Assembly (NCBI GenBank): GCA_051658085.1
Contig: JBOFLX010000030.1
Span: 32,952-96,951 of the forward strand
Direction: 5' to 3'
Source of the DNA: Waterburya sp.
GTDB taxonomy: Bacteria > Cyanobacteriota > Cyanobacteriia > Cyanobacteriales > Xenococcaceae
DNA length: 64,000 nucleotides
Numbering within the stretch: position 1 is the stretch's first letter; each line of letters opens with the position of its first letter. The notes beneath the pieces were generated by a model. It worked only from the letters and a program-made list of their open reading frames with translations. It was not told the DNA's origin and did not search any database. The position numbers were made by a program, and so were the translations under genes. Positions 7,302 to 40,196 of the stretch are shown here, one piece after another.

Positions 7302-7580
7302 ACAGCACCGAAAAATAGTATTGAAGTTTTTATCAATGATCCCTATAGCTTTTTTTAGCTTAATCTCCTTAAAAATACGCAGTATTAGATTATTTTGAGT
7401 ACCATTTTTTGGGTTCATTATGTCTATTCATTACTCAATTATAAAGAGAATGTGAAAAGTTAAGAGCTATTGGGGATCACTCAAAGCCTTGTCAGATAAT
7501 TATTTCAACTAGATCTATGAGTTTATGAAGAAAGCGCAAAATATATGAATAACGAAATGGAATAAAATCGAAATGACCTA

Positions 7581-10300: not shown

Positions 10301-10389
10301 TCTGACTCCTGACTTCTGTACGTCGCCAAACTTACGGCTCCCCTACCTGACTCCTCTCTCAACTATTGATTTAAGTGCGTAACAGCTTA
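10290..10389 (+). mobile_element. MITE-like element copy A (partial, lacks one terminal repeat)
   Basis: core ctgactcctgacttctgtacgtcgccaaacttacggctcccctacctgactcc plus terminal atttaagtgcgtaacagctta shared with copies at 26307-26455, 29436-29597, 39886-40022. Confidence 0.7.
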
Positions 10390-14488: not shown

Positions 14489-14938
14489 ATGAACGAACAT
14501 TGCATGATTCCTATAATGAAAACACCTAGAGATTATCAAGCTTATCGGATTAGTCCTAAAGATAGTAATCGTCTAGCAATCATTTTTGATCCCAATATTG
14601 CCAATGACTCCTTAACTGTCTGCGTAGAAATTTATGATGTTGGTGGTGCAACTCCTCACAATCGTCATGATTTTGCTGTCGAGATGTTTTTTATTCTTAA
14701 AGGGGAAGGTATAGCAGTCTGTGATGGTAAAGAAATTCCTTTTCATAGTGGAGATAGCATTTTAATCCCCAAAACAGGCACTCATTATCTAAAAAATACA
14801 GGTTCCGAACGTTTATATACTTTATGTATGATGGTTCCTAATGAAAACTTTTCGGAGTTGATCCGTAGCGGTACACCTGTAACTTTAGATGAACAAGATT
14901 TACAAGTTTTATCTCGTGTCAGTAACAATTTAGATTAA
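14489..14938 (+). CDS. cupin domain protein
   Basis: 149 aa; HxH...E...H-like metal site (HNRHDFAVEMFF, GTHY) in beta-barrel context. Confidence 0.55.
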   Translation: MNEHCMIPIMKTPRDYQAYRISPKDSNRLAIIFDPNIANDSLTVCVEIYDVGGATPHNRHDFAVEMFFILKGEGIAVCDGKEIPFHSGDSILIPKTGTHYLKNTGSERLYTLCMMVPNENFSELIRSGTPVTLDEQDLQVLSRVSNNLD

Positions 14939-17808
14939 TAACTAATACCTGTGTTACACACATTATTACCTTTTGGCTGTGATGGAGAACTATTAGATTT
15001 ATGAGCAACTAATTCTACAATACCGCGATCGTTAACTATCCATCCCTGAGCCTCGACAATTTCTGCCTTTTTTTCTATGGAGGCGTTTTGCACACTACTA
15101 CTACTACCTTCATCTGCCCCTAAACTTGTGGGTTCGACCAAATCAACCTCACTCATTTCTCCCTCTCGCGCTTGATTAGGACTCGGTGCAATTCCCCCTT
15201 TACCCGTCACAATAAATTCACTTCCCTGTCCTTGTTGACAGAAATTTTGCTCTACTAATCCTGCTACATCGATTATTTCTACGGGTAATTCTTCTAATCC
15301 TTCTGTAGGGTTAACATCAAGTTCGTTAATATTGACTGTTCCATCTAAACCAAAGTTGGAAGAAGCATCCAGATCATTAGTATTGTTTATGGGTGTAGAA
15401 CCTCTTTCTTCAATACCAAAGATGGCATTAGTGAAAAGCTCGATATTACCTCCATTTCCTTGGGCAGCAGAAGCAACAATATCGTTATTTTGGTTAGGAA
15501 AAGCAATAACAAAATTAGCGTCTATATTTATATTGCCACCATCAGCATTTTTCAGTGCTTGAGCAGAAATTGTACTGCTATTTCGTAAGCTCAAATTATC
15601 AGCAATTTGTAGAGTAATATTGCCACCTGTATTGCCTGCTATTCCATTTCCTTGATTGGTGGCATTGATTAAAGCATTGTCGCTAATAGACAAGTTTCGT
15701 GTCGAGATCTTGATATTACCGCCAGAACCTGTAGAATTAGCATCTGTATTAGCGAATATACCACTAGCAGCACCTTCATTGCGCACAATTGGTCTACCTA
15801 TTCGCGCTAATCTTTCAGGGAAAGTAGGATCGCTGCCAGTGATTGTAGTGTTTTCAGTTGTATTGATTGAAATATTACCTGCATCACCGCTACCACGACT
15901 GGTTGTGAGAATTTGTCCGCCACCCTGAACTTGCAAGGTGTTAACGTCTAGGTTGATGTCCCCACCCCTTCCTTGCCCACTAGTGCTAGCACCTATAACA
16001 GCCCCATTTTCAACCGTTAAAGAATTGGCTGTAATTTTTATCTCTCTGCCGTTGCCATTAGAGCCTGCTTCCACCGTGCTAAAAGCACTACTAGAATAAC
16101 CATTTGTACCAGTGCCATTAAAGGAAACTGCACCAGTAGCATTAATTGTCACGCTGCCTGCGTCTTTTGCTACAAAATTACTAACCAAGAGTGTTGCACC
16201 ATTGGTAACATTGAGCGAGTCAGTATTGATCACAATCGCTCCACCATTTCCACTCGCTAACTCAAAAGCTGCACTACCTATACCACTTGAGCCATTGCTT
16301 CCTGCTCCGTCCAAGAAAACTTCCTTGGCATTAACTGTTATATCGCCAGCATTTCCTTGAGCATTGGTATGAGCAACTATCGTAGCACCATTTAATAAAG
16401 ACAGTTTGGGTGCATTAATAGCAATTGTGCCACCGTTACCAACAGCATCAGCAAACACTTGGCTACCAATACCACTGTTTGTATCGCTTATTAAAACATT
16501 ATCACTGGCACTAATTGCTATACTGCCTGCATTTCCGCGCCCAACACTATGAGAAACTATGGTAGCACCGTCTAGTAAAGATACCTTTGGTGCATTAATA
16601 GCAATTTGACCACCGCTACCAGTCCCAAATAGACTGGCTGAGATAACGGTTTCTTCACTATTACCTGCACCATCATAAGAAAACGTATCGCTAGCATTAA
16701 TTATGATGTTACCTGTATTTCCCTGTCCAAAGCTGTTGCCAGAAATTATGGCACCGTTATTTAAAAAAAGCGATCGCCCTGTCATCTCAACATTGCCACC
16801 ATTACCAATTCCTTGTTCGTATACTTCATTAGCAATTGTGCTGTTATCTAGGGTAATATTCCCACTAGCATTTAAGGTGATATCTTCAGCTTGTATCCCT
16901 GAGAATTGGAAATTTGCATCGATACCCGCCTGAATATTACTACCAGAGAGAATATCAATATTATTGGCGTTTATGGCAATACTGCCTTGTCCATTACCAT
17001 TGACTGCCAGGTTAGTAGTATCTGTGAGACTAATATTCTGAAAATTTGTAACGTCTTGATAATCCAATAACCAGCCAGTATTTGCCGACGTGAGATTAAC
17101 TAAACTATTCTCGGCAACGCTACCCAATTCTATCCGTCCACTAGTAGTTTTTAGGGTTGCGCCTTTTAAATTAATATCTCCACCCACTAAGGCTAAGGTT
17201 TGATCTGGTTGCACCTGTAAATTAGCTTCTGTATCAGTAATACTAGACTCGCTCGCTTGTTGACCATTTCCTTGTACTTGAATCGAACTAGAATTTGCTC
17301 CAAATTGTAAACCGATAGGGATATTAATAGATAACAAGGGTGTATTTTGAGGATTTTTTGCACTAAATTCACTACCATCGGCAAATTGTAAACTCTCAGC
17401 AGATGTACCAAGAAAAGAACCACCTATATTTAATTGGGCATTTTCACCAAATACAATTCCATTGGGATTCATTAAAAATAGATTGGCTGCACCATTAGCC
17501 TTAATTAAACCATCAATATTAGAAATTGCACCACCTGTAACTCGGCTGATAATGTTTTGAATATCTACGCTGTTGTTAAAAAATGCTTCTGAGCCTGTAG
17601 GGACTGAAAAATCTTGAAAACTGTGAAATAAATTGCTACCTGCTTGAGTTCCACCCGTAATAATTCTAGTATTCTCCTCTAATCTAACATTGGAATTATT
17701 TGGCAGAGTTGCATCTGGGGTAATTTGGGCTACTGAATTATTAGCGTAAAAAGCGATCGCGCCTGTGATGGCAATGTTTAAAGTCTTTAACCAGTTCAAA
17801 TGCATCAT
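14935..17808 (-). CDS. filamentous-haemagglutinin N-terminal (TPS/haemagg_act) domain exoprotein, beta-helical repeat protein
   Basis: 957 aa; signal peptide, then NTRIITGGTQAGSNLFHSFQDFSV...ANLFLMNPNGIVFG (TPS secretion domain NPNG motif), long G/N/S-rich beta-helix repeats, conserved C-terminal FIVTGKGGIAPSP motif. Confidence 0.8.
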   Translation of the reverse strand: MMHLNWLKTLNIAITGAIAFYANNSVAQITPDATLPNNSNVRLEENTRIITGGTQAGSNLFHSFQDFSVPTGSEAFFNNSVDIQNIISRVTGGAISNIDGLIKANGAANLFLMNPNGIVFGENAQLNIGGSFLGTSAESLQFADGSEFSAKNPQNTPLLSINIPIGLQFGANSSSIQVQGNGQQASESSITDTEANLQVQPDQTLALVGGDINLKGATLKTTSGRIELGSVAENSLVNLTSANTGWLLDYQDVTNFQNISLTDTTNLAVNGNGQGSIAINANNIDILSGSNIQAGIDANFQFSGIQAEDITLNASGNITLDNSTIANEVYEQGIGNGGNVEMTGRSLFLNNGAIISGNSFGQGNTGNIIINASDTFSYDGAGNSEETVISASLFGTGSGGQIAINAPKVSLLDGATIVSHSVGRGNAGSIAISASDNVLISDTNSGIGSQVFADAVGNGGTIAINAPKLSLLNGATIVAHTNAQGNAGDITVNAKEVFLDGAGSNGSSGIGSAAFELASGNGGAIVINTDSLNVTNGATLLVSNFVAKDAGSVTINATGAVSFNGTGTNGYSSSAFSTVEAGSNGNGREIKITANSLTVENGAVIGASTSGQGRGGDINLDVNTLQVQGGGQILTTSRGSGDAGNISINTTENTTITGSDPTFPERLARIGRPIVRNEGAASGIFANTDANSTGSGGNIKISTRNLSISDNALINATNQGNGIAGNTGGNITLQIADNLSLRNSSTISAQALKNADGGNINIDANFVIAFPNQNNDIVASAAQGNGGNIELFTNAIFGIEERGSTPINNTNDLDASSNFGLDGTVNINELDVNPTEGLEELPVEIIDVAGLVEQNFCQQGQGSEFIVTGKGGIAPSPNQAREGEMSEVDLVEPTSLGADEGSSSSVQNASIEKKAEIVEAQGWIVNDRGIVELVAHKSNSSPSQPKGNNVCNTGISY

Positions 17809-17840
17809 CCTGAACCCATGTTTACTTAAATATTAAAAGC

Positions 17841-17900
17841 GAAAAGTGAATCATTTAGATCGCACCTGAACAAATACCCGAATTTTTCCCCTGTAAATCT
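17841..17900. promoter_or_regulatory. conserved ~60-bp motif (copy 1) in divergent intergenic region between the two TPS-exoprotein genes
   Basis: gaaaagtgaatcatttagatcgcacctgaacaaatacccgaatttttcccctgtaaat; ~88 percent identical second copy at 20563-20626. Confidence 0.4.
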
Positions 17901-17934
17901 TATTTAGTAAATTACAGAATGTTAACAAACCCTA

Positions 17935-20541
17935 TTGAGGAGTATAGATTTGAAACGACGCTTTTCTCTATCCTGGTTTTTTGCTATTTGTCTGGCTACA
18001 AGTTTACTTCCAAGCAATTCTGCTTCAGCCCAGGTTACTTCAGATGGCACGACTGGAACTGTAGTTGATGCTAATGGCAATAGTTTTGAAATTAATGCAG
18101 GTACTAGAAGCGGAGACAATCTGTTTCATAGTTTTGAAGAATTTTCAGTCCCTAACGGTGGAGAAGCAGTTTTCAATAACGCTGTAGATATCAGTAATAT
18201 CTTGTCTAGGGTTACAGGGGGAGAGATTTCTAATATCGATGGTTTAATTGAGGCACAGGGCGGTGCTAATCTATTTTTGATCAACCCTGCTGGGATTATT
18301 TTTGGTCAAGGTGCAAGTTTATCTATTGGTGGTTCGTTTTATGGTAGTACTGCGGATAGTATTGTGTTTGAAGATGGGGAATTTAGCGCAGTCAATAATT
18401 TAAATCAACCAATACTGACTATTAACGCTCCCATTGGTTTGAATTTGAGAGATAATCCTAATGGTATTGCTGTCAATGGTAATAACAATGGTACAGAACC
18501 TGCTGATTTTTCTGCACTATCTGTACTCGAAGATCAAAGTCTCTATTTGATTGGTGGCAACATCGAGCTGAACAATGCAACATTATCAGCACTTGAGGGC
18601 AATATAACATTGGGAGGCTTACAGACTTCGGGAACTGTTGATATTAATGAAAATGGCAACTTAAATTTTCCTGAAAACTTGGCTAGAGGAAATATCTCTT
18701 TAGATAATTCTAGTGTTTCTCTTGGTTTTGGCAGCAATAATGGTGAAGGTGGGACTATTAATCTTAATGGCAATAATATAGAGTTGCTGAATAATAGTAT
18801 GCTAATGAACAGTATAGATGCTAATTCTGGTTCTACCGAAGCTCAAGCAGGAAATATTAACCTTAATGCGACTGAAACAATAAATTTAAGTGGAAGAAGC
18901 GTTATACGAAATCTAGTCGAGAGTGGCTCAGAGGGGAATAGTGGTAATTTAGAACCAGGAGCAATAAGCAATGGTGGTAATGTAGATATTACAACAGCTA
19001 ATCTTTCTATTGACAATGGCGCATCTATTAGTGCTGGTACTTTGGGCGAGGGAGATGGCGGAGATGTCACAATTAATGCGACTGAATCAATCACTCTTGA
19101 TGGTACAACTCCTGATGGTCAATTTCGCAGTGTAATTACCAGTCAAGTAGAATCAGGAGCAACAGGCAATGGTGGTAATGTAGATATTACAACAGCTAAT
19201 CTTTCTATTGACAATGGCGCATTTATTAGTGCTGGTACTTTGGGAGAGGGAGATGGCGGAAATGTTTTAATTAATGCGACTGACTCAATCACTCTTGATG
19301 GTACAACTCCTGATGGTCAATTTCGTAGTGTAATTGCTAGTCAAGTAGAATCAGGAGCAATAGCCAATGGTGGTAATATAGATGTTACAACAGCTAATCT
19401 TTCTATTGACAATGGCGCATTTATTAGTGCTGGTACTTTGGGAGAGGGAGATGGCGGAGATGTCACAATTAATGCGACTGAATTAATCACTCTTGATGGT
19501 ACAACTCCTGATGGTCAATTTCGCAGTGTAATTGCCAGTCAAGTAGAATCAGGAGCAATAGGCAATGGTGGTAATGTAGATATTACAACAGCTAATCTCT
19601 CTCTTGACAATGGCGCATTTATTAGTGCTAGTACTTTGGGAGAGGGAGATGGCGGAAATGTTTTAATTAATGCTGAAAAATTAATCACTCTTAATGGTAG
19701 AACTCCTGATGGTCAATTTCCCAGTGTAATTGCTAGTGAGGTAAACCAGGAAGCAATAGGCAATGGTGGTAGTGTTGAGATTACAACAGCTAATCTCTCT
19801 CTTGACAATGGCGCAGCAATTAGTACTAGTACTGTCGGAGAGGGAAATGGTGGAGATTTAACTTTCAATATAGGCGATCGCTTGACTCTAGAAGAAAACA
19901 GTGATATTTCAGCAGAAGTTATTGGAACTAATGCCAATGGAGGCGACATAACTATCAATGCTGAAAATGGTTTTGTAGTTGCTTTTCCCAATCAAAATGA
20001 AGGTAATGGCAGCGATTTTATTACTAGATCTCCAGAAGGTAAAGGTGGAAATATTGAGATGAATGCTCAAGGGGTTTTGGGTTTAGAAGAAGGGAATGCT
20101 AATCTTGCTAACAATATCAACAATATTGATGCTAGTGGAACTGTTGATGGTGTGGTAAAGATTAATACTCCTAATTCAGATGCAATTGAAGGAACAACTC
20201 AACTACCTAATAATCCTGTAGAAGCTGGAGAAACTGTTACTCAAGCTTGTGTTTCTGGTCAGGGTGTTGATGGTAATAATCTGATAGTTAGTGGTAAAGG
20301 TGGCATACCTCGTCAACCTATTGAACCGTTAGTTGCCGATTCAATTTATGTTAACGGTCAGACAATACAATCAACATCTCCTCAGCCAGAAGCTATTAAA
20401 CCAATAAAAACTAGTAAAGGTGATATTATTCCTGCCCAGGGAGTCGATATTACAAAAGATGGAAGGGTTATTCTAACAGCCTATCCCACTAGTAATAATT
20501 CTAGAACTCCAAAAACATCCACTAATTGCGGTAAATCATGA
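17935..20541 (+). CDS. filamentous-haemagglutinin N-terminal (TPS/haemagg_act) domain exoprotein with internal 66-aa tandem repeats
   Basis: 868 aa; signal peptide, GDNLFHSFEEFSV...ANLFLINPAGIIFG TPS domain, five 66-aa repeats, C-terminal LIVSGKGGIPRQP motif shared with the upstream paralogue. Confidence 0.8.
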   Translation: MRSIDLKRRFSLSWFFAICLATSLLPSNSASAQVTSDGTTGTVVDANGNSFEINAGTRSGDNLFHSFEEFSVPNGGEAVFNNAVDISNILSRVTGGEISNIDGLIEAQGGANLFLINPAGIIFGQGASLSIGGSFYGSTADSIVFEDGEFSAVNNLNQPILTINAPIGLNLRDNPNGIAVNGNNNGTEPADFSALSVLEDQSLYLIGGNIELNNATLSALEGNITLGGLQTSGTVDINENGNLNFPENLARGNISLDNSSVSLGFGSNNGEGGTINLNGNNIELLNNSMLMNSIDANSGSTEAQAGNINLNATETINLSGRSVIRNLVESGSEGNSGNLEPGAISNGGNVDITTANLSIDNGASISAGTLGEGDGGDVTINATESITLDGTTPDGQFRSVITSQVESGATGNGGNVDITTANLSIDNGAFISAGTLGEGDGGNVLINATDSITLDGTTPDGQFRSVIASQVESGAIANGGNIDVTTANLSIDNGAFISAGTLGEGDGGDVTINATELITLDGTTPDGQFRSVIASQVESGAIGNGGNVDITTANLSLDNGAFISASTLGEGDGGNVLINAEKLITLNGRTPDGQFPSVIASEVNQEAIGNGGSVEITTANLSLDNGAAISTSTVGEGNGGDLTFNIGDRLTLEENSDISAEVIGTNANGGDITINAENGFVVAFPNQNEGNGSDFITRSPEGKGGNIEMNAQGVLGLEEGNANLANNINNIDASGTVDGVVKINTPNSDAIEGTTQLPNNPVEAGETVTQACVSGQGVDGNNLIVSGKGGIPRQPIEPLVADSIYVNGQTIQSTSPQPEAIKPIKTSKGDIIPAQGVDITKDGRVILTAYPTSNNSRTPKTSTNCGKS
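18970..19960 (+). repeat. intragenic tandem repeat, 5 units of 198 bp (66 aa), central units nearly identical
   Basis: unit starts at 18970, 19168, 19366, 19564, 19762 (aatggtggtaatgtagatattacaacagctaatct...). Confidence 0.8.
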
Positions 20542-20562
20542 TAATCGCTGTGTTATTAAGGA

Positions 20563-20626
20563 TGAAAATTGCAGCATTTGGATCGCACCTGAATAAATAC
20601 CCAAATTTTTCCCCTTTAAATTCTTT
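20563..20626. promoter_or_regulatory. conserved ~60-bp motif (copy 2) downstream of TPS gene / upstream of DUF4278 ORF
   Basis: gaaaattgcagcatttggatcgcacctgaataaatacccaaatttttcccctttaaat. Confidence 0.4.
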
Positions 20627-20669
20627 TTGCTGAGTCACACAATAATGACAAATATACTTTTAAAACAAA

Positions 20670-20915: not shown

Positions 20916-21371
20916 TTGAGGGAGGTATTTACGAGCATGAAAAATAATAAATCTAATTCCTTTACCGAACGTGAATTTGCAGAATATCATCAAGTAAATA
21001 GTATTCCCCGAAATATATTGCTTATGGAAGCAGAATGTTTCAATACGGTAAAAAATACAACAAATAATACTGAAGCATCAGAAAAGGGAATTCTTTTCAG
21101 TTTAGGATTTCTCGCTACATTGTTATTTTTCAGTGGGCTTCAATTACATTACTCTTTAAATATAGCTCCAGCTAAATTGGAAATTAATAAAACCCAAAAA
21201 GTGTCTGCTTCTAATACAAAAATATTGGCTACAGGAATTACCTTAAAAGAATTTAATAAAGTACAAAATTACCAAAAAATCAATTATTCAACTAATGAAA
21301 TTAGTAATTTAGTAAGTAACAATATAAGGCTTCAAGCTGCGCAGAATACTATTGCTCAAGGTAAATTTTAG
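20916..21371 (+). CDS. hypothetical N/K-rich low-complexity protein with one hydrophobic segment
   Basis: 151 aa ORF, AT-rich, weak. Confidence 0.3.
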   Translation: MREVFTSMKNNKSNSFTEREFAEYHQVNSIPRNILLMEAECFNTVKNTTNNTEASEKGILFSLGFLATLLFFSGLQLHYSLNIAPAKLEINKTQKVSASNTKILATGITLKEFNKVQNYQKINYSTNEISNLVSNNIRLQAAQNTIAQGKF

Positions 21372-21762: not shown

Positions 21763-22581
21763 GTGATGAAAGTATCAAAAGTATCAAAAAAAAATAAACA
21801 TCAAAAAATTAATCATAATTTTGATTGGATTGCTTTTATAAACAGCTTGGTTTTGTTATTAATCCCAATCACAATCGTCTTTGTTGATGGGCAGACTGCA
21901 ATTGCGAATGAAAAGACAAAAAGCAATACTTTTGTTCTATTTCAACCACCGCCAGAAGAAGAACAGCCAGAAGAGACGGAGGGAGCAGCTTCACGGCAAA
22001 ATGGCAAGTGTTCTGGGGATTTATTTGCTGCTCAACAAGATAGTGCTGATGTTAGTCATAAATTGACTGCTATTGTACCCGATCGCAACTATGGATTAAC
22101 AACTGCGGAGCGTCCTAATCTTTGGGTTTATTTACCTCAAACTTCGGCACAGCAAGCAATTTTAAGTATCAAAGAAGCAGGTACTAGACCTCATTGGCAA
22201 CAGTCAATTGATTTAACAGGCGAGGCTGGGATTATGAAAATTAAACTAGCTCAAGATGCCCCTGCTTTAAAAATTGGTCAAAACTATCAATGGGCGCTAA
22301 TCTTAGTGTGCGGTAATCAACCAACTCCCAATGATCCTGTTGTTGCTGCTTGGATTGAGCGTATTAGTAAATCGCAAATTACGACTATGAATAAACAGCA
22401 GTTTGATTCTACTAAATTAGACAAGGCTGCTTGGTATGCACGACAAGGTATTTGGTATGATGCGCTGAATATCTTAGCTTCAGAAAAATCGTCTTTAAAT
22501 AATGGGAACGATCTATGGGCTAAATATCTGCAATCTGGTGGTTTAGCTGAATTTGCTAATCAAGCAATTATTAATTACTGA
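21763..22581 (+). CDS. DUF928 domain protein (signal-anchored, secreted)
   Basis: 272 aa; N-terminal TM/signal, then conserved core PNLWVYLPQTSA...QNYQWALILVCG...WYARQGIWYDAL consistent with cyanobacterial DUF928 family. Confidence 0.6.
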   Translation: MMKVSKVSKKNKHQKINHNFDWIAFINSLVLLLIPITIVFVDGQTAIANEKTKSNTFVLFQPPPEEEQPEETEGAASRQNGKCSGDLFAAQQDSADVSHKLTAIVPDRNYGLTTAERPNLWVYLPQTSAQQAILSIKEAGTRPHWQQSIDLTGEAGIMKIKLAQDAPALKIGQNYQWALILVCGNQPTPNDPVVAAWIERISKSQITTMNKQQFDSTKLDKAAWYARQGIWYDALNILASEKSSLNNGNDLWAKYLQSGGLAEFANQAIINY

Positions 22582-22807: not shown

Positions 22808-23377
22808 CTAACTAGCCACGCTACCTATTACACCCTTCATAGCTGCAATTCCTTGTTCGATGCTAGCCCAAAGTCCCATATCTGGTTCTATACCAGCTAT
22901 TTCTCGTGTTCCTACAAAATAGAGAACTCCTTTGAGAACTTCTTGATGGGCGCGATTTTCAAAGTTAACTTTATTGAGAGGTTCGACTGCATCTTGAAGT
23001 TTGTCATCAAGAGACTGAGCAACTTTATGAATCACTAAGCCAGTCATAGTCTGCTGATGTTTTAGTAACTCAAACTGAAAGAATTTATCATAAGATGTAA
23101 GTTCCGAACCATTCATCATTTTGTTGATTGCCTCGGCGTGTTTTTGAGTTATGTCGCGAGGTTGAGCGGTACTTCCAACTTCAGAAATGGCTTTGTCAAT
23201 AGAGTTAAGGTTTTCGCGATCGCTTGTAATCATTTTTTCTAGTCGCTCGCGGATTGTATCGTCATTTGTTTCGCTCATTAGTTTTTGACCGCTTTCAAGC
23301 AAAACTTCTTGAATAAGTTTTAAATCCGCTAGTTTTGTTTCTAGGTTTGTCATATCAGCCATCGCTGTTATCTCCAA
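22808..23377 (-). CDS. hypothetical all-helical protein
   Basis: 189 aa ORF; no recognised motif. Confidence 0.35.
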   Translation of the reverse strand: MEITAMADMTNLETKLADLKLIQEVLLESGQKLMSETNDDTIRERLEKMITSDRENLNSIDKAISEVGSTAQPRDITQKHAEAINKMMNGSELTSYDKFFQFELLKHQQTMTGLVIHKVAQSLDDKLQDAVEPLNKVNFENRAHQEVLKGVLYFVGTREIAGIEPDMGLWASIEQGIAAMKGVIGSVAS

Positions 23378-23609: not shown

Positions 23610-26273
23610 CTATTGATAACTGGTTAGTTTTTTAGTTATTAAGGATGAATTGTCTTTGTTTTCCGACTGTTTTAAATATTCTAAAGCAATTCTGCCAACA
23701 ACAGGATGATTATGATATTCAATTAATAGTAATTCTAATGTATGTTGAAATTTAACGTGATCGCGTTGTTTATTTCTAATAATTATTGCCGTAATTATTG
23801 TTAGAATTAGTGTTAGTAATGCAGGTACAACAGGTAGCCAGTAACCCGCTAAAAACGCTTGATAACAAACAATAATTAAAATTATACTAGTTAAGCAAAT
23901 ACTGGAAATAATCAGGATTGTCTTTAATATTTGCCAAGCAATAATTACACCAGTAATTCCCCACAAAAATATCCAAAGAGATTCTAAAAGTTGGTTATGA
24001 GTGTGAAGTAAAGGACGATTATTAATCGCTGCATTAATTATTTGACTGCTAACATTAGCATGAATAAAAACTCCAGGCATTTTTTGAGGAGAACGAAACC
24101 AACCTTGACTATAAGGTGTATAAAAAAAATCTCTCAAACTTTCAGCAGTAGAACCAATAAAAATTAAGCGATCGCGTATGTCTTCGGTAGCAATCTCATT
24201 CTTTAGTACCTTGGTTAAAGAATACTGCTTAAAATTAGCTTTTGTCCCCCAAAAATTGAGTAATATCTGATATCCTTTAGCATCTGCACCGATATATCCG
24301 CCACTGTGAGGGGTAAATCGCTCAAAAACAGCTTTTCCTAAACGATAGCGATGATTATTAATTGGTTCAAGCTTGATTTTTTGCTCTTGGAGATAATGTA
24401 GAGCTAATTGAGTACCTAAACTAAAGCGTGTTTGTTGATCACTTCCCACTGTTGATAATAAAGCACGACGTATTTTACCATCACTATCTAATACTTGATC
24501 GCTAAACCCGACTTGTTTTTCACTAACATTAACTGAGGGAGGAATAGCATCACCAATTACTTTTTCTACTACATATAAATTGGGAGTAGAGTTATAAATT
24601 GCGTTTAAATCTTGGTTTCCTGGTTGTACAGGTAAATCGCGATAAAGATCTAGAGCGATCGCGCTTGGTTGATGTGTTTTGATATTTTTAATTGCTGTAG
24701 CTAAAATGCGATCGGAAATTGGTAATTGTCCTATTGTATTAATATCTTGTTCATTAATAGTAACTACCACAATTCGAGGTTCAATATTATTAGTAAGTCG
24801 CCAAACAAAAAAGCGATCAAGTAAATTCCATTCCCAAGTTTGTAAAATTCCTGTACAGCGTATTAATAAAATCAATCCCGTTACTCCCAAGGCTATCTTT
24901 ACAAGCCACTGCTTACTTAACCGTTGTTTATTGGCTTTTTGTCGTGCTTGTTTTCTGACATTTGCTAATAGTTTGCTTGCTGCTTCTACTGCTGCTAAAG
25001 CTTCTTGAGCTTCTTGTTTAGCCAAGTTTTGACTAGCCACTAAAAACTGATAATCTATATCTGTCAGACTTTTTCCTAATGACCAAGTTAAGGCAGTTTG
25101 TAAATCTTTACCTTTTAGTAAATAATCAGAATTATTAGTAGCAATCCAATCAGCGATCGCCTGACTATAAGGACGTAATTGAGTTAATTGTGCGTCTATC
25201 CAGGCTAGATTAAATACCTTGGCATAAATCGGGTTGGTAACTGATAAATTCCCCTTGCTTTCTATAACTAAACCTGATAAACGCAACTCTATTTGTTCGG
25301 TACTATTACTAACAGGAATTACTTGATTTTGTAAATCTCGATATAATCCTAATAATCGAATAGTCTTGGTAGAATTACGATAACATAGACGATTGCGGAT
25401 AGTTCTTAAATGTTCTGGTTCGTCTTGAGCTTCCCAATCTGTAAGGAAATATTTTTCAACAATTTTATCTATAGTTAATTCATTTTTTTTATTTGTCTCT
25501 TTAACAACCAACTGACATAATTTTTGAGTTAAAAACGGTTGTCCCCCAGTCCAAAATAAAATTTCGCTTAATATTTCTGATGGCTGATCAACTTTATCAA
25601 TCATACCTAACATTAAAGGAGAAGCTTCTACTAAAGTAAATCCTTGTAAGTTTATCCCTTTACCTAGTTCAAAAGGTGATTGATTTTTATCTCTAATTAA
25701 ATCTCTTGGTGCTGCAACTCCTAATAAAGTAAAAGTCAGTCGTTGATAATCACTATTAACCTGACGCTTTTGATAGCAACTATGAATCAGAGCAAAAAAA
25801 TTATCCAATGAAAAAGCTTGACTGAGAACTCGATCTATCTCATCAATAAAAATAACAATATTTTCTTTAACTTCTACTAATAAAACCTCTTCAATAAATA
25901 AATTCAATCGTTGTACAGGTGAAAACAAATCTCTTTTTTCTCGCCACCAATCACGCCAATTAAATTTAAGTTGACAACTACTAACAATCGAACGAACAAT
26001 TCCTGCATACCATTTCTCAATAGTTAAATCTTGCGTCCCCATTCCAGTTAAGTCTACAAATACACAAACATTTCCCTCTGCTTGTAATTTCGACATAGCT
26101 CGAACTCGCAAACTAGACTTTCCCATTTGACGAGAATTTAAAACATAACAAAACTGACCTTGTTTTAAAGCTTTTTCTAACTCGCGATCGGCTTTTCGCT
26201 CTACGTAGCTAGGAGAATTACTAGCTAAACTTCCTCCTACTTGATAAGTAAATATTTGATTATCTTTATTCAT
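23610..26273 (-). CDS. AAA_35-family NTPase fused to transmembrane CHASE2 sensor domain
   Basis: 887 aa; N-terminal YVERKADRELEKAL...LNSRQMGKSSL (AAA-like/AAA_35 P-loop), central TM helix, CHASE2-like LDRFFVWRL...RIVVVTINEQDI...AIALDLYRD, three C-terminal TM helices. Confidence 0.65.
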   Translation of the reverse strand: MNKDNQIFTYQVGGSLASNSPSYVERKADRELEKALKQGQFCYVLNSRQMGKSSLRVRAMSKLQAEGNVCVFVDLTGMGTQDLTIEKWYAGIVRSIVSSCQLKFNWRDWWREKRDLFSPVQRLNLFIEEVLLVEVKENIVIFIDEIDRVLSQAFSLDNFFALIHSCYQKRQVNSDYQRLTFTLLGVAAPRDLIRDKNQSPFELGKGINLQGFTLVEASPLMLGMIDKVDQPSEILSEILFWTGGQPFLTQKLCQLVVKETNKKNELTIDKIVEKYFLTDWEAQDEPEHLRTIRNRLCYRNSTKTIRLLGLYRDLQNQVIPVSNSTEQIELRLSGLVIESKGNLSVTNPIYAKVFNLAWIDAQLTQLRPYSQAIADWIATNNSDYLLKGKDLQTALTWSLGKSLTDIDYQFLVASQNLAKQEAQEALAAVEAASKLLANVRKQARQKANKQRLSKQWLVKIALGVTGLILLIRCTGILQTWEWNLLDRFFVWRLTNNIEPRIVVVTINEQDINTIGQLPISDRILATAIKNIKTHQPSAIALDLYRDLPVQPGNQDLNAIYNSTPNLYVVEKVIGDAIPPSVNVSEKQVGFSDQVLDSDGKIRRALLSTVGSDQQTRFSLGTQLALHYLQEQKIKLEPINNHRYRLGKAVFERFTPHSGGYIGADAKGYQILLNFWGTKANFKQYSLTKVLKNEIATEDIRDRLIFIGSTAESLRDFFYTPYSQGWFRSPQKMPGVFIHANVSSQIINAAINNRPLLHTHNQLLESLWIFLWGITGVIIAWQILKTILIISSICLTSIILIIVCYQAFLAGYWLPVVPALLTLILTIITAIIIRNKQRDHVKFQHTLELLLIEYHNHPVVGRIALEYLKQSENKDNSSLITKKLTSYQ

Positions 26274-26306
26274 GAAATAGATAGGAAAATGTCTTGTTAA
26301 CTTATT

Positions 26307-26455
26307 AAGCTGTTACGCACTTAAATCAATAATTGAGAGAGTAGACAGGAGTCAGGTAGGGGAGCCGTAAGTTTGGCGACGTACAGGAGTCATAACCAGG
26401 GTTTATAGCCTAATTTACTAACAAAACAATACACAATTTAAATGCGCTTTAGCTT
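26307..26455 (-). mobile_element. MITE-like element copy B (~149 bp, imperfect ~20-bp terminal inverted repeats)
   Basis: taagctgttacgcacttaaat ... core gagtcaggtaggggagccgtaagtttggcgacgtacaggagtca ... atttaaatgcgctttagctta; sits between two genes of the island. Confidence 0.7.
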
Positions 26456-26573
26456 ATTCGATCTAAGATTAATTTATATAGTAATTACTATAGGAAAAAT
26501 TCAGGTATTTTTTCAGGTATTTATAAAATAAGCGAATAAAGTTTTATTGTAGTCAAGCTTTATTTCTGCGGAT

Positions 26574-27314
26574 TTATTTTTTTTGATATCGTTGATATTG
26601 TTTCTCAAATTGTTCTAACATTTCATTGGTTAGAATATCATTTGTATTATTATAATAAACACTTAAATAGTCAAAAATTTCTTTGATGTTAGTGATTCTT
26701 TGCTTTTCATCAGATTCTGGAAATGTATTACTTGACTCAAAAAGAATACGATTTTTTAAATATATACTAAACTCCAATAATATATCTTCGTTAAATTTTT
26801 TTACTTCTTGTAGCGATTGATACAATTGATTACAAGAACGAATACCAGTACTAAGAGCTATGCGCGTATGTTTTGGTGTTTTTGCTTCTGCTGCTGTAAA
26901 ATTTCCGTTTGATTTATGCTGTTCTTGTTTGATATAAGTTATGTTTCGATACCCGTTAATGCAATTATTAACAAATTTTGGAAAAGTATCATAATCAAGA
27001 TAATCGGATAGCATCCAATTTTTGGAACATAGTTGATGCTCGTTTTTGTAACTATTAGACGGACATCCTAACAGAGTGCATGAAGCAGAGGTAACTGCAT
27101 AAAATAAACCAAAATTGTCAATGTTAAAATTACACTTATTACAACCTTGAGGGCAATAATACGAGTCAGGAATTATTGATTGCAAAATTCCTTTATGCCA
27201 AAAACTATTATTAATTTGCAGCCCAATGGAATAAGCTCCAAATAACATAATAAAAAAAAATATAATATATATAGTCACTAAAAAAATAACTGTTTTTTGT
27301 AAATACTTAACCAT
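26574..27314 (-). CDS. hypothetical Cys-rich, N-terminally anchored protein; extremely AT-rich gene
   Basis: 246 aa; one N-terminal TM; about 10 Cys in the ectodomain (CPQGCNKCN, CTLLGCPSN); GC visibly lower than flanks. Confidence 0.4.
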   Translation of the reverse strand: MVKYLQKTVIFLVTIYIIFFFIMLFGAYSIGLQINNSFWHKGILQSIIPDSYYCPQGCNKCNFNIDNFGLFYAVTSASCTLLGCPSNSYKNEHQLCSKNWMLSDYLDYDTFPKFVNNCINGYRNITYIKQEQHKSNGNFTAAEAKTPKHTRIALSTGIRSCNQLYQSLQEVKKFNEDILLEFSIYLKNRILFESSNTFPESDEKQRITNIKEIFDYLSVYYNNTNDILTNEMLEQFEKQYQRYQKK

Positions 27315-27443
27315 ATTTCAGTAAGTTTTTGAGATAATGTAAGTTAGTATAGCCTATTAATTTTAAAATATTATTATTGTTTAGACTTCTATTCATACAT
27401 TAAATTGAAATATTCATAATTAAATAATTATCAAGTACATAAA

Positions 27444-28802
27444 TTATTCATTAATAAAATAATCACGATATAACTTACAGCGAGGAGATACTAAATTATT
27501 TTGCTGTTTAACTAAACCAAGACTATGTAACTTATAAATTTGTAAAGAATTAAGAGCTACGGGGACATCAGATTTGACCACTGTAGAAAAAACCGAACTA
27601 AGTTCTGGAGATTCATTTAAAATATTAGCTAAACGACGCAAAGGATTACTATAAATTCCCGTCTCTGAAATAGCTGTTTGTAAAAATTGCTCTAAAGTAA
27701 GATTTTGGGTTTTTATCTGATACATTGCCAATCTTACCAAATAAGGATGACCGCCCACCAAATCCATCAATTGCTCGATTTCAGATTGATCCCAATCCAA
27801 CTGATATAAAGATGCTAAGGTGGCTACTTGTGTATAATCAAATTCTTCTAATAAAATTGGTACTCCTGCATTAAAAGGAGATTGATTAATATCTAAAGGA
27901 ATATACACTTCTGTTGAATGAGCTAGGAGTAGTTTTAATCTTGACCAACAATGATAAATTTTGCCCTTTTCGTGCCAACTACGTAACATTCCAAAAAAAT
28001 CTTCAATTACTTCTTCGTAAACAAATAAGCGATCAATATTATCAAAAGCTAAAACAATTTCACTAGTTATTTCCGCCAAAATATAATCTTCAAAATAAAA
28101 CGTACAGTTATCGTTGCTACCGAGAATATCTGTATCCCAATAATGTTGTACCTTATTTTCCAATTTCAACTGACGAGAAACCACTGCGCATAACCAACGT
28201 AGAAGTTTATCCAAATCATTTAGAATTGCTCTTTCGACACTACCAAAATCCAAATATACTGTTGTTTGTGACTGCAAAATTCCTTGTTCAAGAATACGAT
28301 TAACCAAAGAAGTTTTACCCATCCATTTTGCCCCTTTGATCCGAATTAAAGAGCCTGGTTTAATAATTGTTTCATAACAAATCGATTCTATAGGCGTTTG
28401 CGAAGCTAGCGGTACGCATCGCCTAATATAAAAATGAGAGCCTAAAGCAACTGAACCTTCAGGAAAAGTAAGGGTTTCTGTTGATAATTGATGTTGATAA
28501 TTGTTAATATTTGCTTGAATATTTTGCTGCCATTCCCGTTTTAATGCTTCTTTAAAATTTTTCTTTGATACTTTTTCTTGCAAAGCTGTTGACAAAGTTC
28601 CCCATAACTTACTTCCCACATCTTTACTTAAATAGTTACTGGTATAACCTTCAGCTTCGGCAATTTCTTCATAAGTTCGATTATCCCAAGCACCGCGTAA
28701 AATAGTAATCTCTAAATCACTTAAATGCTTTCCTGTATGCCGAAATACCAAATTTTCGGCGGTTTGTTGTGCTTTTTTCCAACTGAATGTATTTAGATTC
28801 AT
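27444..28802 (-). CDS. AAA_35-family NTPase with N-terminal HTH-like (LuxR/sigma-70 region-4-like) domain
   Basis: 452 aa; N-terminal LSDLEITILRGAWDNRTYEEIAEAEGYTSNYLSKDVGSKLW; P-loop IRIKGAKWMGKTSL then Walker B-like VLAFDNIDRL; overall collinear with N-terminal ATPase part of 23610-26273. Confidence 0.6.
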   Translation of the reverse strand: MNLNTFSWKKAQQTAENLVFRHTGKHLSDLEITILRGAWDNRTYEEIAEAEGYTSNYLSKDVGSKLWGTLSTALQEKVSKKNFKEALKREWQQNIQANINNYQHQLSTETLTFPEGSVALGSHFYIRRCVPLASQTPIESICYETIIKPGSLIRIKGAKWMGKTSLVNRILEQGILQSQTTVYLDFGSVERAILNDLDKLLRWLCAVVSRQLKLENKVQHYWDTDILGSNDNCTFYFEDYILAEITSEIVLAFDNIDRLFVYEEVIEDFFGMLRSWHEKGKIYHCWSRLKLLLAHSTEVYIPLDINQSPFNAGVPILLEEFDYTQVATLASLYQLDWDQSEIEQLMDLVGGHPYLVRLAMYQIKTQNLTLEQFLQTAISETGIYSNPLRRLANILNESPELSSVFSTVVKSDVPVALNSLQIYKLHSLGLVKQQNNLVSPRCKLYRDYFINE

Positions 28803-29048
28803 CTTTCTCTTCCCGCCAATCCTTTATCTCCGCCTTTATTTAACCTGGTTTCATGATAAAAGTTAACTAGATTACAAACATCTAAAAAACGTCCTAAATC
28901 ATTTTCCAACCAAAGTAATAAGCCTTTTCAAACTTTCGTCACTCATTAAGTATATTTTCTTACAACTAAAGTCTCTTCATTGAACATTAAACATTGACCA
29001 TTCGATATCGTTGATAAATGGTAAATGAAATGACTTCGTTGTCAAGCG

Positions 29049-29074
29049 GTTATAGGTTATAGGTTATAGGTTAT
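29049..29074. repeat. tandem heptamer (GTTATAG) x3.5
   Basis: ttataggttataggttataggttat. Confidence 0.7.
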
Positions 29075-29138
29075 TTTCTAATGCTCTTAAGCACCTTAAT
29101 CAGTTAATATTACAGAACAAAAATCAAATACAGAAAAT

Positions 29139-29429
29139 ATGAAAACCCAAGATCAACCTATTGCGATTTCTGGACAATGGTGCTTAGTAACAGTAAGCCA
29201 GTGGAAACGTGAATCTTTTTTAAAATATCTAAATAATGACATTGAAAAAAAACAATTACAAAATGTAATTTTAGAGATTATTGCTCTAGAAGAATCTGTT
29301 TACGAAAATATGGTTTTGCTTCGTATCAGTAATTATTCTGAAGCTAGAACTCATTTGCAACAAATAGACCATTTTCAAAATATTCAAAGATTAAAACCTA
29401 ATGAAGTAAGTCGGATGTTGAATAAATAA
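29139..29429 (+). CDS. hypothetical small protein
   Basis: 96 aa ORF; MITE copy C starts 6 bp after its stop codon. Confidence 0.3.
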   Translation: MKTQDQPIAISGQWCLVTVSQWKRESFLKYLNNDIEKKQLQNVILEIIALEESVYENMVLLRISNYSEARTHLQQIDHFQNIQRLKPNEVSRMLNK

Positions 29430-29435
29430 GTAATT

Positions 29436-29597
29436 AAGCTGTTACGCATTTAAGTTACTGGTTAAGAAAGGAGTCAGAAGTCAGGAGTCAGGTAGGGGAG
29501 CCGTAAGTTTGGCGACGTACAGGAGTCAGGAGTCAAGATAAGGGTTTCAACCTAATTTTTTAAGAGAATAGTATGCAATTTAAATGCGCTTTAGCTT
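29436..29597 (-). mobile_element. MITE-like element copy C (~162 bp, both terminal inverted repeats present)
   Basis: aagctgttacgcatttaag...gagtcaggtaggggagccgtaagtttggcgacgtacag...caatttaaatgcgctttagctt; full reverse-complement match to copy D. Confidence 0.75.
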
Positions 29598-29694
29598 AAT
29601 AAACAAAGTATGTATTTTAAGCAAATAATTTAACACGATTATTGTTTAAGGGCGATCGCGCTTATTTACCTTTAGTACATCAAGTTAAAGTCAA

Positions 29695-33539: not shown

Positions 33540-34117
33540 AATTCGTTCTACCGATTTTAGGAATTCTCGACCTTTTTCGGGATTAATCATGGCTACGTAA
33601 TTAGCAAAACCAGCGATCGCAGCCATTAAATTCGGTGAATTTCCCCATTTTTTGCCAGATAATCCTTTTTAATAGTACAAATTAACCCAAGAAGTGTCGC
33701 TACTGCTTCTGAATATCCCAAACTAAGAAATAATTCTTGAACGTGTTTGTAGGAGATTGATTGGAAAAAATTTTGTAAATCAAGTTTAATGATTATATCT
33801 GCGCCGACATGGGGTTGAGCATTAGTGATGATCGAGCGATCGCGACGAAACCCGTGTGCTGCCTCGTGTACTTCTAGCTTATGCAAAATATTCTTGAGAA
33901 TATATATTTGAGCAGCCTTAAGATATGGCATTGGTGCATAAATTGTTCTTTGTTCGCCCGTCTTTTTGGAAATTTGAAAGCGAAAATAATGAATAAGAGG
34001 AAAGGTAAGCGGTTTAAAAGCTAACCAACGTAGTTGTTCGACACTGATATTCATTAATAAGGCTAATTCTGCTTCAGTGTTATATATTGGTAGTCTTTTG
34101 GAGGACAATGTTGTCAC
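33540..34117 (-). pseudogene. retron-type reverse transcriptase remnant (truncated after RT motif 2, similarity continues out of frame)
   Basis: 163-aa ORF YFRFQISKKTGEQRTIYAPMPYLKAAQIYILKNIL...AHGF...LDLQNFFQSI matches retron/Abi-type RT N-terminal motifs; catalytic YxDD region absent in frame; hand translation of reverse complement 33540-33625 gives an RT-like continuation in another frame. Confidence 0.55.
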
Positions 34118-39699: not shown

Positions 39700-39885
39700 C
39701 CGTAAACAGTATTTACCTGAGTTTGATATTTTTTGGTTGTCATAAAGATGAACTTGTTGCAGTTTACACTTTATATTTAACAAAAACCAAGTAAGGTAGA
39801 CAAACGTTAAAAATCAGAAACTATCCAATAGACCTAGCTTGAAAATAAACAAGAAAAGAAAATGAAACTAACTCTAAGCTAAAGC

Positions 39886-40022
39886 ACATTTAAATTGCAT
39901 ACTATTCTCTTAAAAAATCAGGTTAAAACCCTTATCTTGACTCCTGACTTCTGTACGTCGCCAAACTTACGGCTCCCCTACCTGACTCCTGACTCAACCA
40001 GTAACTTAAATGCGTAACAGCT
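39886..40022 (+). mobile_element. MITE-like element copy D (~137 bp, both termini)
   Basis: aagctaaagcacatttaaattgcat...ctgactcctgacttctgtacgtcgccaaacttacggctcccctacctgactcc...cttaaatgcgtaacagctta. Confidence 0.75.
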
Positions 40023-40196
40023 TACTATAATTTCCAGCAAGATATAAAGTTTTGCTGAATTAGTTAGTTAATTATTTGCCAGCATGATAAAAGAATAGAT
40101 GTTATTGGCAATTTCTTAACTTAAGACTATTTGTAAATTAACTTTGTATGGGCAAGTTAGTTTGATGAATAATCACTACGTAATTGAGAACTAATT

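Follow-up and report, generated by a model that had tools for sequence, protein, structure and literature searches.

STAND NTPases, among them the NLRs, Apaf-1, Avs and MalT, are central switches of innate immunity and of bacterial defence and regulation, and are normally single chains. Plant paired NLRs are side-by-side paralogous STAND proteins, one of which detects and the other executes; they are NB-ARC-LRR proteins, usually arranged head-to-head, and each partner has both N- and C-terminal domains. Here we describe two neighbouring NTPase genes in a 64,000-nucleotide stretch (the window) of contig JBOFLX010000030.1, from a metagenome-assembled genome (MAG) of Waterburya sp. (GCA_051658085.1), one of the Pleurocapsales cyanobacteria. 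These genes encode a 452-aa protein (A, 27444-28802) and an 887-aa protein (B, 23610-26273), and a 246-aa protein (X, 26574-27314) is encoded between them. We consider it probable, though far from certain, that the locus is an instance of a conserved two-gene module in which paralogous STAND-like AAA_35 NTPases divide sensing and output between them.

Relative to the STAND NTPases (NB-ARC/AP-ATPase, NACHT, MalT and Avs) and to archaeal ATPase_2 (PF01637), effector and sensor are here carried on separate paralogous chains, and by sequence both A and B belong to Pfam AAA_35 and not to NB-ARC or NACHT. The side-by-side division is similar to that of plant sensor/helper NLR pairs, with which A and B have only the STAND fold in common and whose counterpart here would be a presumed hetero-oligomer of A and B. 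With CHASE2 receptors (Zhulin et al. 2003, as cited in PMC8195603 and PMC5587647) B shares a predicted periplasmic CHASE2 domain, with one transmembrane (TM) segment on its N-terminal side and three on its C-terminal side. Classical CHASE2 receptors, as Zhulin et al. are said to have described in 2003, have their output domain, a cyclase, GGDEF, kinase or His-kinase, C-terminal to the last TM segment, whereas B has an N-terminal STAND-like NTPase and just a 55-aa tail behind that segment. We know of no output logic for a CHASE2-NTPase receptor.

The NTP-dependent conflict systems of multicellular bacteria described by Kaur, Burroughs, Iyer and Aravind in 2020 (PMC7159879) and 2021 (PMC8195603) include the vWA-MoxR-VMAP/iSTAND ternary, GAP1 GTPase, EACC and TRADD-N systems, and CHASE2 is named there as a variable C-terminal sensor of a caspase component. 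The A-B family has in common with them the effectors TIR, caspase/CHAT, trypsin and EAD1 and HTH heads named after VMAP, as well as a constant NTPase core with rapidly varying ends and an enrichment in filamentous and colonial cyanobacteria. No vWA or MoxR genes are present at the A-B locus, and AAA_35, DUF928 and a paired-NTPase module are unmentioned in the main texts of the two papers, whose supplementary tables were not searched. No description of a paired AAA_35 module was found in the searchable literature; PF14516 gave no literature match, and AAA_35 is encountered only as a listed accessory domain of sigma-like proteins. The possibility raised in a preliminary description of this DNA, that the arrangement is a widespread and already characterised locus, therefore holds in its first part only: the pair is widespread, but no sign of its characterisation was found. 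What is apparently new is that the sensor and the output of a STAND-like system are divided between paralogues and that its input, CHASE2, is an unusual one, in a large and conserved family that seems not to have been described.

The AAA_35 NTPases A and B

The two genes and their domains, in coordinates of the window, are as follows.

23610..26273, minus strand: gene B, 887 aa, with AAA_35, a helical linker, a TM segment, CHASE2, three TM segments and a 55-aa tail (Pfam and hydropathy)
25212..26234, minus strand: AAA_35 module of B, aa 14-354 (Pfam)
23943..24881, minus strand: CHASE2 domain of B, aa 465-777 (Pfam and hydropathy)
27444..28802, minus strand: gene A, 452 aa, with an HTH_VMAP-M9-type helical domain, a disordered linker and AAA_35 with helical lid and winged helix
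28503..28802, minus strand: HTH_VMAP-M9-like N-terminal domain of A, approximately aa 1-100 (model and homologue annotation)
27453..28466, minus strand: AAA_35 module of A, aa 113-450 (Pfam and fold relatives)

An open reading frame (ORF) check agrees exactly with the preliminary description on the positions of A, X and B, all on the minus strand, and profile searches bear out its placement of both ATPases in an AAA_35/STAND-like family. A matches AAA_35 with 446 bits (E=6e-134, residues 113-450) and B with 104 bits (E=1e-29, residues 14-354), the gathering score for membership of Pfam AAA_35 (PF14516) being 27 bits. The two P-loops that had been quoted as a sign of paralogy are present, and the NTPase cores of A and B are indeed paralogous, aligning at 23% identity over 245 aa (E=2e-15). 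Both proteins have the Walker A lysine and the Walker B aspartate, in motifs conserved in alignments, and the core with its lid, winged helix and fold relatives is of STAND type; the pair departs from STAND proteins in that effector and sensor do not share a polypeptide. Comparison with sequences in the PDB by phmmer gave no match for A and P-loop noise alone (RecA) for B, such that neither has a significant (E < 0.001) solved sequence relative.

In B the Walker A motif is SRQMGKS and the Walker B motif FIDEID, of which D144-E145-I146-D147 is invariant in an alignment of nine diverse B proteins. Pfam and hydropathy agree with the earlier reading of this gene as AAA_35 plus TM plus CHASE2: the CHASE2 match is strong (E=4e-65, 220 bits, residues 465-777), and the hydropathy profile shows a 1+3 topology with TM1 at residues 458-478, CHASE2 in between, and TM2-4 at 765-834. 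From this arrangement of TM segments around CHASE2 the NTPase is predicted to be cytoplasmic and CHASE2 periplasmic. The 55-aa cytoplasmic tail that follows the last TM segment is conserved and has no Pfam match, the NTPase being N-terminal instead. More than 100 clusters of full-length B homologues are found at 54-73% identity, and full-length AAA_35-CHASE2 proteins occur in Pleurocapsales, Nostocales, Gloeothece, Scytonema and one Gloeobacterales MAG.

In A the Walker A motif is GAKWMGKT and the Walker B motif AFDNID, with Asn in the usual position of Glu, and this DN is kept in at least 90% of 50 aligned A homologues. Because its Walker B is DN, A may be a subunit that only binds nucleotide. 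An AlphaFold2 model of A (pLDDT 82.7) has a compact N-terminal helical domain at residues 8-100, with helices at 8-23, 29-39, 44-51, 55-74 and 83-100 modelled at high pLDDT, after which come a disordered linker (98-135) and the NTPase part, made up of P-loop alpha/beta core, helical lid and an end resembling a winged helix. Its fold relatives include the STAND proteins TIR-NLR WRR4A (16.2), CED-4 (15.5), a wheat NB-ARC resistosome protein (15.3), MalT (13.8), and Avs3/4/5 and ZAR1 (~12-13), and further Orc/Cdc6 (~13.5). With such relatives the model supports the label STAND-like, the predicted fold being of the STAND/ATPase_2 kind with P-loop core, helical lid and winged helix. The helix-turn-helix-like head proposed earlier for A, fused to AAA_35, fits the annotation of its relatives: PF26355 (HTH_VMAP-M9) is precomputed on the 98%-identical homologue P0135 and on nearly all listed A homologues, although the local Pfam copy is silent on it.

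When one genome per species was scanned, 593 relatives of B were confirmed, and the best-scoring 80 loci were analysed. In 52 of these 80 loci an A gene precedes B on the same strand: within 100 nt in 13, at 101-1000 nt in 26 and further away than 1000 nt in 13. It is on the opposite strand to B in seven loci, and three are truncated upstream of B. Gaps of 23-46 nt between A and B are seen in many loci, across many subtypes and taxa. The sampled A proteins end with the NTPase and have no C-terminal repeat arrays, and the B proteins begin directly with it. The N-terminal domains of A types are HTH_VMAP-M9, TIR, Trypsin_2+TIR, CHAT+TIR, Peptidase_C14 (caspase)+TIR, Pkinase, Guanylate_cyc+TIR, Sigma70_r4+TIR, HTH_26 (Cro/C1 HTH)+TIR and EAD1, and the C-terminal domains of B types are CHASE2, WD40, TPR, Trypsin_2, CHAT, HisKA+HATPase_c and PG_binding_1. 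As judged from sequence, the pair is a conserved cyanobacterial module in which the STAND logic of effector, switch and sensor would be spread over two paralogous chains. The proposal that A and B form a sensor/regulator pair, one with an HTH-type head and one a CHASE2 membrane sensor, is thus strengthened by its recurrence as a conserved unit at 52 of 80 loci, and its attribution to a conflict or signalling type by the TIR, caspase, trypsin and EAD1 domains of paralogous pairs. When effector-bearing pairs are compared with PADLOC v2, the TIR, trypsin, caspase and CHAT parts match and the AAA_35 core never does. NCBIfam and PADLOC scans of A, X, B and orf96 (a small ORF upstream of A) gave no match, nor did an Rfam scan of the window from 14 to 33 kb.

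Two strain-specific insertions between A and B

The interval between A and B, and a related element upstream of A, comprise the following.

26308..26453, no strand: 146-nt miniature inverted-repeat transposable element (MITE), with TAA/TTA target-site duplication at 26305-26307 and 26454-26456
26454..26527, minus strand: 74-nt remnant of the ancestral A-B spacer with the putative B promoter element, 92-93% identical to sister strains L092 and L093
26528..27417, no strand: 890-nt strain-specific insertion carrying X, absent from L092 and L093
26574..27314, minus strand: X, 246 aa, Cys-rich and N-terminally anchored (hydropathy and profile searches)
29435..29598, no strand: second full-length MITE, upstream of A beyond orf96 and outside the system

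The sister strains L092 and L093 are the Waterburya assemblies GCA_051657825.1 (A 98% identical) and GCA_051660945.1 (B 92% identical). Segment 28989-27418 of the window, comprising A and its flanks, is homologous in both at ~95% identity, and synteny with L092 ends at 28989, just upstream of A. In the two strains A and B are separated by a spacer of just 148-149 nt which lacks the Cys-rich gene, and their sequences align at 92-95% identity on either side of the 890-nt insertion. They also lack the MITE, homology resuming at 26307 at the start of B, and the empty site reads CGAA-TAA-TAAG. The X piece and the MITE are thus two independent strain-specific insertions and not components of the module. 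The claim that A, X and B form a three-gene operon fails on the absence of X between A and B in these strains and of any tblastn match to it in the 80 loci. Likewise, the NTPase pair cannot be counted as accessory DNA, as had been proposed, since it is conserved across cyanobacterial orders and nothing but the 890-nt piece and the MITE has been inserted recently. A general lesson for annotation is that what looks like an operon of three genes may be a unit of two genes broken up by recent insertions, as comparison with sister strains reveals.

Base composition agrees in part with the low-GC island reported earlier. The dip is strong in the inserted piece and in intergenic DNA, with X at a GC content of 0.275 (z=-2.7), the lowest of any gene in the window (gene mean 0.375), but it does not extend over a whole island, A and B at 0.332 (z about -1.15) being mildly low.

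The MITE copies flanking B and A had been noticed previously and are here delimited to 26308-26453 and 29435-29598. Further copies lie at 39875-40027 (full) and ~10303-10389 (truncated), giving three full and one truncated copy in 64 kb, and the MITE is therefore not specific to the A-B locus. Members of the family are ~146-165 nt long, with imperfect terminal inverted repeats GCTGTTACGCAYTTAAAT ... ATTTAAATGCGCTTTAGC and an internal GGAGTCAGGAGTCAGG run that differs in length among copies, as defined from repeat families D7-D9, inverted repeats I2-I10 and a four-copy alignment. In size, terminal inverted repeats, 3-bp TAA duplication, dispersed copies and the empty site in sister strains they are like IS5/Harbinger-type MITEs, a type to which we presume them to belong from the 3-bp TNA duplications; no autonomous partner was identified.

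The spacers of related loci are also variable. That of L089 has two tiny ORFs and that of L091 (Xenococcaceae) contains a phage-type integrase gene (6707-7543) and a 227-aa ORF unrelated to X. Because these spacers and that of the window hold different inserts, including an integrase, the A-B spacer looks like an insertion hot spot.

A different kind of spacer is seen where an HTH-type A accompanies a B with WD40 repeats. At these loci (L041, L042, L044, L045 and L048; L046, L049, L050 and L054-L056) A and B are 1.7-8 kb apart and the space contains exported-protein genes on the opposite strand. These encode beta-lactamase-fold hydrolases with BTRD1 (polyglycine-hydrolase-like) repeats, which are kept across Nostocaceae, Rivularia, Alkalinema and one unclassified cyanobacterial MAG, and in Microcoleus RTX calcium-binding proteins; CARDB proteins and unknown signal-peptide proteins are also seen. 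The presence of exported-protein genes in these spacers suggests that HTH-type AAA_35 pairs generally accompany exoprotein genes.

X itself is 100% identical to NCBI protein MGL5940098.1, encoded on a 123,666-bp contig, and fits its earlier portrayal as an AT-rich, Cys-rich, N-terminally anchored protein, having eight Cys and a single N-terminal hydrophobic segment at residues 4-35. It has no match in Pfam, NCBIfam or PADLOC. The family is very rare, with 14 homologues among 5.8 billion clusters, X being a singleton cluster, and 39 matches to an X profile among 1.84 billion representatives, of which two are spurious; these are P0278 and P0291, FN3-like repeat proteins with an N-rich motif, which were rejected as members. 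Its members conserve four to six Cys together with the motifs NGYRNITY, KHT and KEIFDY, and stand-alone members mostly start with a signal peptide or membrane anchor. In an AlphaFold2 model (pLDDT 72) of X a helical domain comes after a small beta-hairpin region, and structure prediction gave no convincing fold relative. Homing endonuclease identity was considered for X and discarded, as X does not combine a recognisable nuclease fold or motif with a cytoplasmic location.

The proposed role of X as cargo of the NTPase pair does not survive comparison: five other neighbourhoods of X-family genes have no AAA_35 gene, the sister strains have no X, and no X homologue turned up in L089-L091. The exported-protein genes in other A-B spacers briefly revived a cargo slot for X, which was rejected given the empty 148-nt spacer of the sister strains and the lack of the cassette motif (described below) upstream of X. 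We conclude that X is an exported accessory protein that landed between A and B by chance.

In some cyanobacteria the X domain is fused directly behind the N-fragment of the DnaE split intein (IntN). L004 (7399-10855) has the dnaE-N extein, IntN and X in a single gene with one frameshift. In L005 (3750-11119) a normal dnaE-N is followed by two genes each composed of a ~14-aa leader, an intact IntN and X, one X being truncated, and the IntN copies keep Cys1 and TxxH; in L003 (3169-6357, 9823-9990 and 10001-10993) an IntN 3' remnant is followed by one leader-IntN-X gene. Orphan C-terminal cassettes that follow CDI/Rhs toxin genes have a similar layout, and here IntN would be the segment shared for recombination. 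The dnaE-N of L003 (3169-6357) carries a ~185-aa pentapeptide-repeat tail behind the split-intein N-fragment, and the C-terminus of DnaE IntN thus seems to accept different appended domains by genome: X, pentapeptide repeats or none.

The CHASE2 cassette, a promoter-like element and a proposed mechanism

Beyond the A-B pair the cassette includes these features.

14935..17808, minus strand: TPS_A, second gene for an exoprotein with a two-partner secretion (TPS) domain (Pfam TPS E=5e-70), with inverted repeats I1 and I3
17863..17889, plus strand: cassette motif site 1, in the divergent TPS_A/TPS_B intergenic region upstream of TPS_B, with the -10-like CAGAAT 25-26 nt downstream
17935..20541, plus strand: TPS_B, TPS-domain exoprotein, TpsA-like (Pfam TPS E=5e-54)
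20586..20612, plus strand: cassette motif site 2, between TPS_B and orf151/DUF928 (motif scan)
21763..22581, plus strand: DUF928 gene, exported protein, convergent with B (Pfam E=4e-46)
26493..26519, minus strand: cassette motif site 3, TACCTGAAAAAATACCTGAATTTTTCC, in the A-B spacer upstream of B, with the -10-like TTAGAT 26 nt downstream

Neighbours were counted for 27 full-length AAA_35-CHASE2 genes, the counts being limited by flank length. DUF928 is the commonest (17/27), usually convergent with B and at times overlapping its 3' end, followed by TPR-CHAT (13/27), A (12/27), a TPS-domain exoprotein (11/27) and a ShlB/FhaC transporter (4/27). The DUF928 protein of the window has a signal or anchor segment at residues 20-48, and DUF928 is also beside B in L089-L091. 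Besides A, two TPS genes, DUF928 and B lie in the window, these in the relative order and orientation usual for the cyanobacterial ShlB / TPS / TPR-CHAT / DUF928 / CHASE2 neighbourhood, but CHAT and ShlB were not found among its scanned ORFs. Of the partners of a two-partner secretion system, TpsA and a TpsB (ShlB/FhaC, POTRA) transporter, the window shows two genes with the TPS domain, and ShlB is seen in more complete cassettes at other loci. The one paper found to name DUF928 mentions in passing that Nostoc punctiforme has a CHASE2-DUF928-WD40 cluster (PMC5587647), and the combination of CHASE2, CHAT, hemagglutinin and cyanobacteria gave no literature match. The ShlB/TPS/CHAT/DUF928 cassette, common in cyanobacteria, appears to have been hardly studied.

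A 27-nt element, CACCTGAAnAAATACCnGAATTTTTCC, consists of a tandem ACCTGAA repeat with a 12-nt period and occurs three times in the 64-kb window and not at all in 100 shuffles. The cassette contains every one of the three, each in the orientation of the gene downstream of it. The motif is also upstream of B in L089, L090, L091, L092 and L093, upstream of the small-ORF/DUF928 unit in L089, L090 and L091, and upstream of the TPS-leading unit in L091. Every site has a -10-like hexamer (CATAAT, TATAAT, CAGAAT or TTAGAT) ~26 nt downstream, a spacing that in sequence terms is the layout of an activator-dependent promoter. No copy is found upstream of X or of A in the window. B is therefore likely to be driven from a regulated promoter of its own within the A-B spacer, such that A and B need not share one transcript; scans for promoter and terminator consensus sequences were at chance level and uninformative on co-transcription. 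The MITE has inserted ~4 nt downstream of the putative -10 of this promoter and is therefore probably now inside the 5' untranslated region of B. That B, the DUF928 unit and the TPS unit constitute one regulon, with the HTH head of A as candidate regulator, is offered as a lead and not as a result. The operator-like element is a directly testable handle.

A plausible scenario can be drawn up for the pair, each step of which we infer. B would be a receptor in the inner membrane that takes its input through periplasmic CHASE2 and uses its cytoplasmic AAA_35, whose Walker B is the canonical DE, as switch, and A a soluble protein with a DN Walker B AAA_35 and an N-terminal HTH_VMAP-M9 output. An extracytoplasmic cue, sensed by CHASE2 possibly together with the exported DUF928 protein encoded next door, would lead to nucleotide-dependent opening and oligomerisation of the NTPase of B, which would co-assemble with its paralogue A and so cluster or release the HTH heads of A. 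These might then act on the operator ACCTGAA-N5-ACCTGAA-TTTTTCC, 26 nt upstream of the -10 box. Since B, the DUF928 unit and the TPS unit each have this element in front of them, the outcome would be control of an exoprotein and two-partner-secretion cassette, with B autoregulated.

Several points weigh against this scenario. Contact between A and B is presumed, and DNA binding by HTH_VMAP-M9 is a matter of annotation, the N-terminal 110 aa of A having no match in the local Pfam copy even at E<=10. Whether A is deficient in hydrolysis is uncertain because its acidic D257 could replace the missing Glu. Matches to the motif came from Pleurocapsales loci only, with none in 1.64 Mb of other loci nor in shuffled controls, and the scanned ORFs of the window lack the CHAT and ShlB genes of fuller cassettes. 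Moreover, 18 of the 80 loci, including 15 of the 27 of CHASE2 type, have no A in the flanks covered, and Pleurocapsa PCC 7319 keeps the motif upstream of B without an adjacent A; a B gene can thus occur with no A linked to it, and the motif might be bound by some other regulator. These last absences, together with the apparent promoter of B in the spacer, would suit a reading in which A and B are independent paralogues that merely lie together, B signalling alone via its NTPase and tail, for example to the DUF928/TPS/CHAT machinery, and A being an unrelated ATP-dependent transcription factor of the MalT type, a structurally related kind of single-chain STAND regulator that is known to exist. 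We nevertheless think such independence unlikely, given the same-strand upstream A at 52 of 80 loci, often at gaps of 23-46 nt and over many subtypes and taxa, and the complementary ends of the proteins, A varying at the N-terminus and B at the C-terminus.

Much the same low probability is assigned to anti-phage or programmed-cell-death immunity of the Avs or bacterial NLR type, with B detecting an invader or envelope damage and A harming the cell. Paralogous A proteins do carry TIR, caspase, CHAT, trypsin and EAD1 domains that match PADLOC effector models, B paralogues have WD40 or TPR sensors like those of Avs and NLR proteins, and the closest structures to A include TIR-NLR, CED-4 and Avs3/4/5. 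However, A has here an HTH head instead of a killing domain, a periplasmic CHASE2 would be out of reach of a cytoplasmic phage protein, and A and B match no PADLOC model, the AAA_35 core being unmatched even in effector-bearing pairs; moreover, identities of 54-73% across orders and a stable neighbourhood give the CHASE2 subtype the look of housekeeping signalling and not of a fast-turnover defence island. Less probable still, and as a conserved design already largely disproved, is a single A-X-B operon with exported X as cargo or effector under the NTPase pair. The co-orientation of the three genes, the anchored or exported nature of X and the exported-protein genes that fill other spacers speak for it, and capture of X could be recent, but X is missing from the 148-149 nt spacer of the two closest strains, from the 80 loci by tblastn and from L089-L091; the five other X-family neighbourhoods have no AAA_35 gene, the GC content of X is the lowest in the window, X has no cassette motif in front of it whereas B, the DUF928 unit and TPS do, and the interposed exoprotein genes of other loci are on the opposite strand.

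We therefore retain the division of sensing and output between paralogous AAA_35 NTPases as our preferred reading. A bolder generalisation, which we advance tentatively and with more doubt than belief, is that paired AAA_35 proteins are widespread undescribed 'split STAND' switches, hetero-oligomers of sensor B and executor A, with the CHASE2 subtype the first of the STAND machines in which a signal from the periplasm is read and turned, by way of an HTH head and a tandem-repeat operator, into control of the TPS/CHAT/DUF928 cassette. If true, the split STAND proteins would be a bacterial counterpart of plant sensor/helper NLR pairs, and the family would provide a simple genetic system for learning how sensor and executor STAND proteins communicate, as in the paired NLRs of plants.

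Repeats around the TPS genes and minor ORFs

The divergent genes TPS_A and TPS_B are paralogous, and their 5' coding parts make up inverted repeats of 72-79% identity (17375-17635 and 18117-18377). TPS_B contains at least four tandem copies of a 198-nt (66-aa) repeat, D1, at 18950-19843, with 86-96% identity, and its true start is probably the TTG at ~17950. A 99-nt direct repeat, D5, flanks TPS_B (17831-17929 and 20554-20652, 77% identity) and contains the cassette motif; because the homology extends past the 27-nt core, whole promoter regions may have been duplicated around the gene.

Among the various other ORFs, those at 22808-23377 (minus strand, 189 aa), 20916-21371 (plus, 151 aa; orf151) and 29139-29429 (plus, 96 aa; orf96) have no counterpart in the 80 related loci. 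Both orf151 and orf96 are of very low GC content (0.29), and the GenBank label of orf96, 'chromosome segregation ATPase', is unsupported by its 96-aa sequence. Finally, a 163-aa ORF at 33626-34117 on the minus strand has a weak match to reverse transcriptase (RVT_1) just under the Pfam threshold, and may be a remnant of a group II intron or of a retron-type reverse transcriptase.

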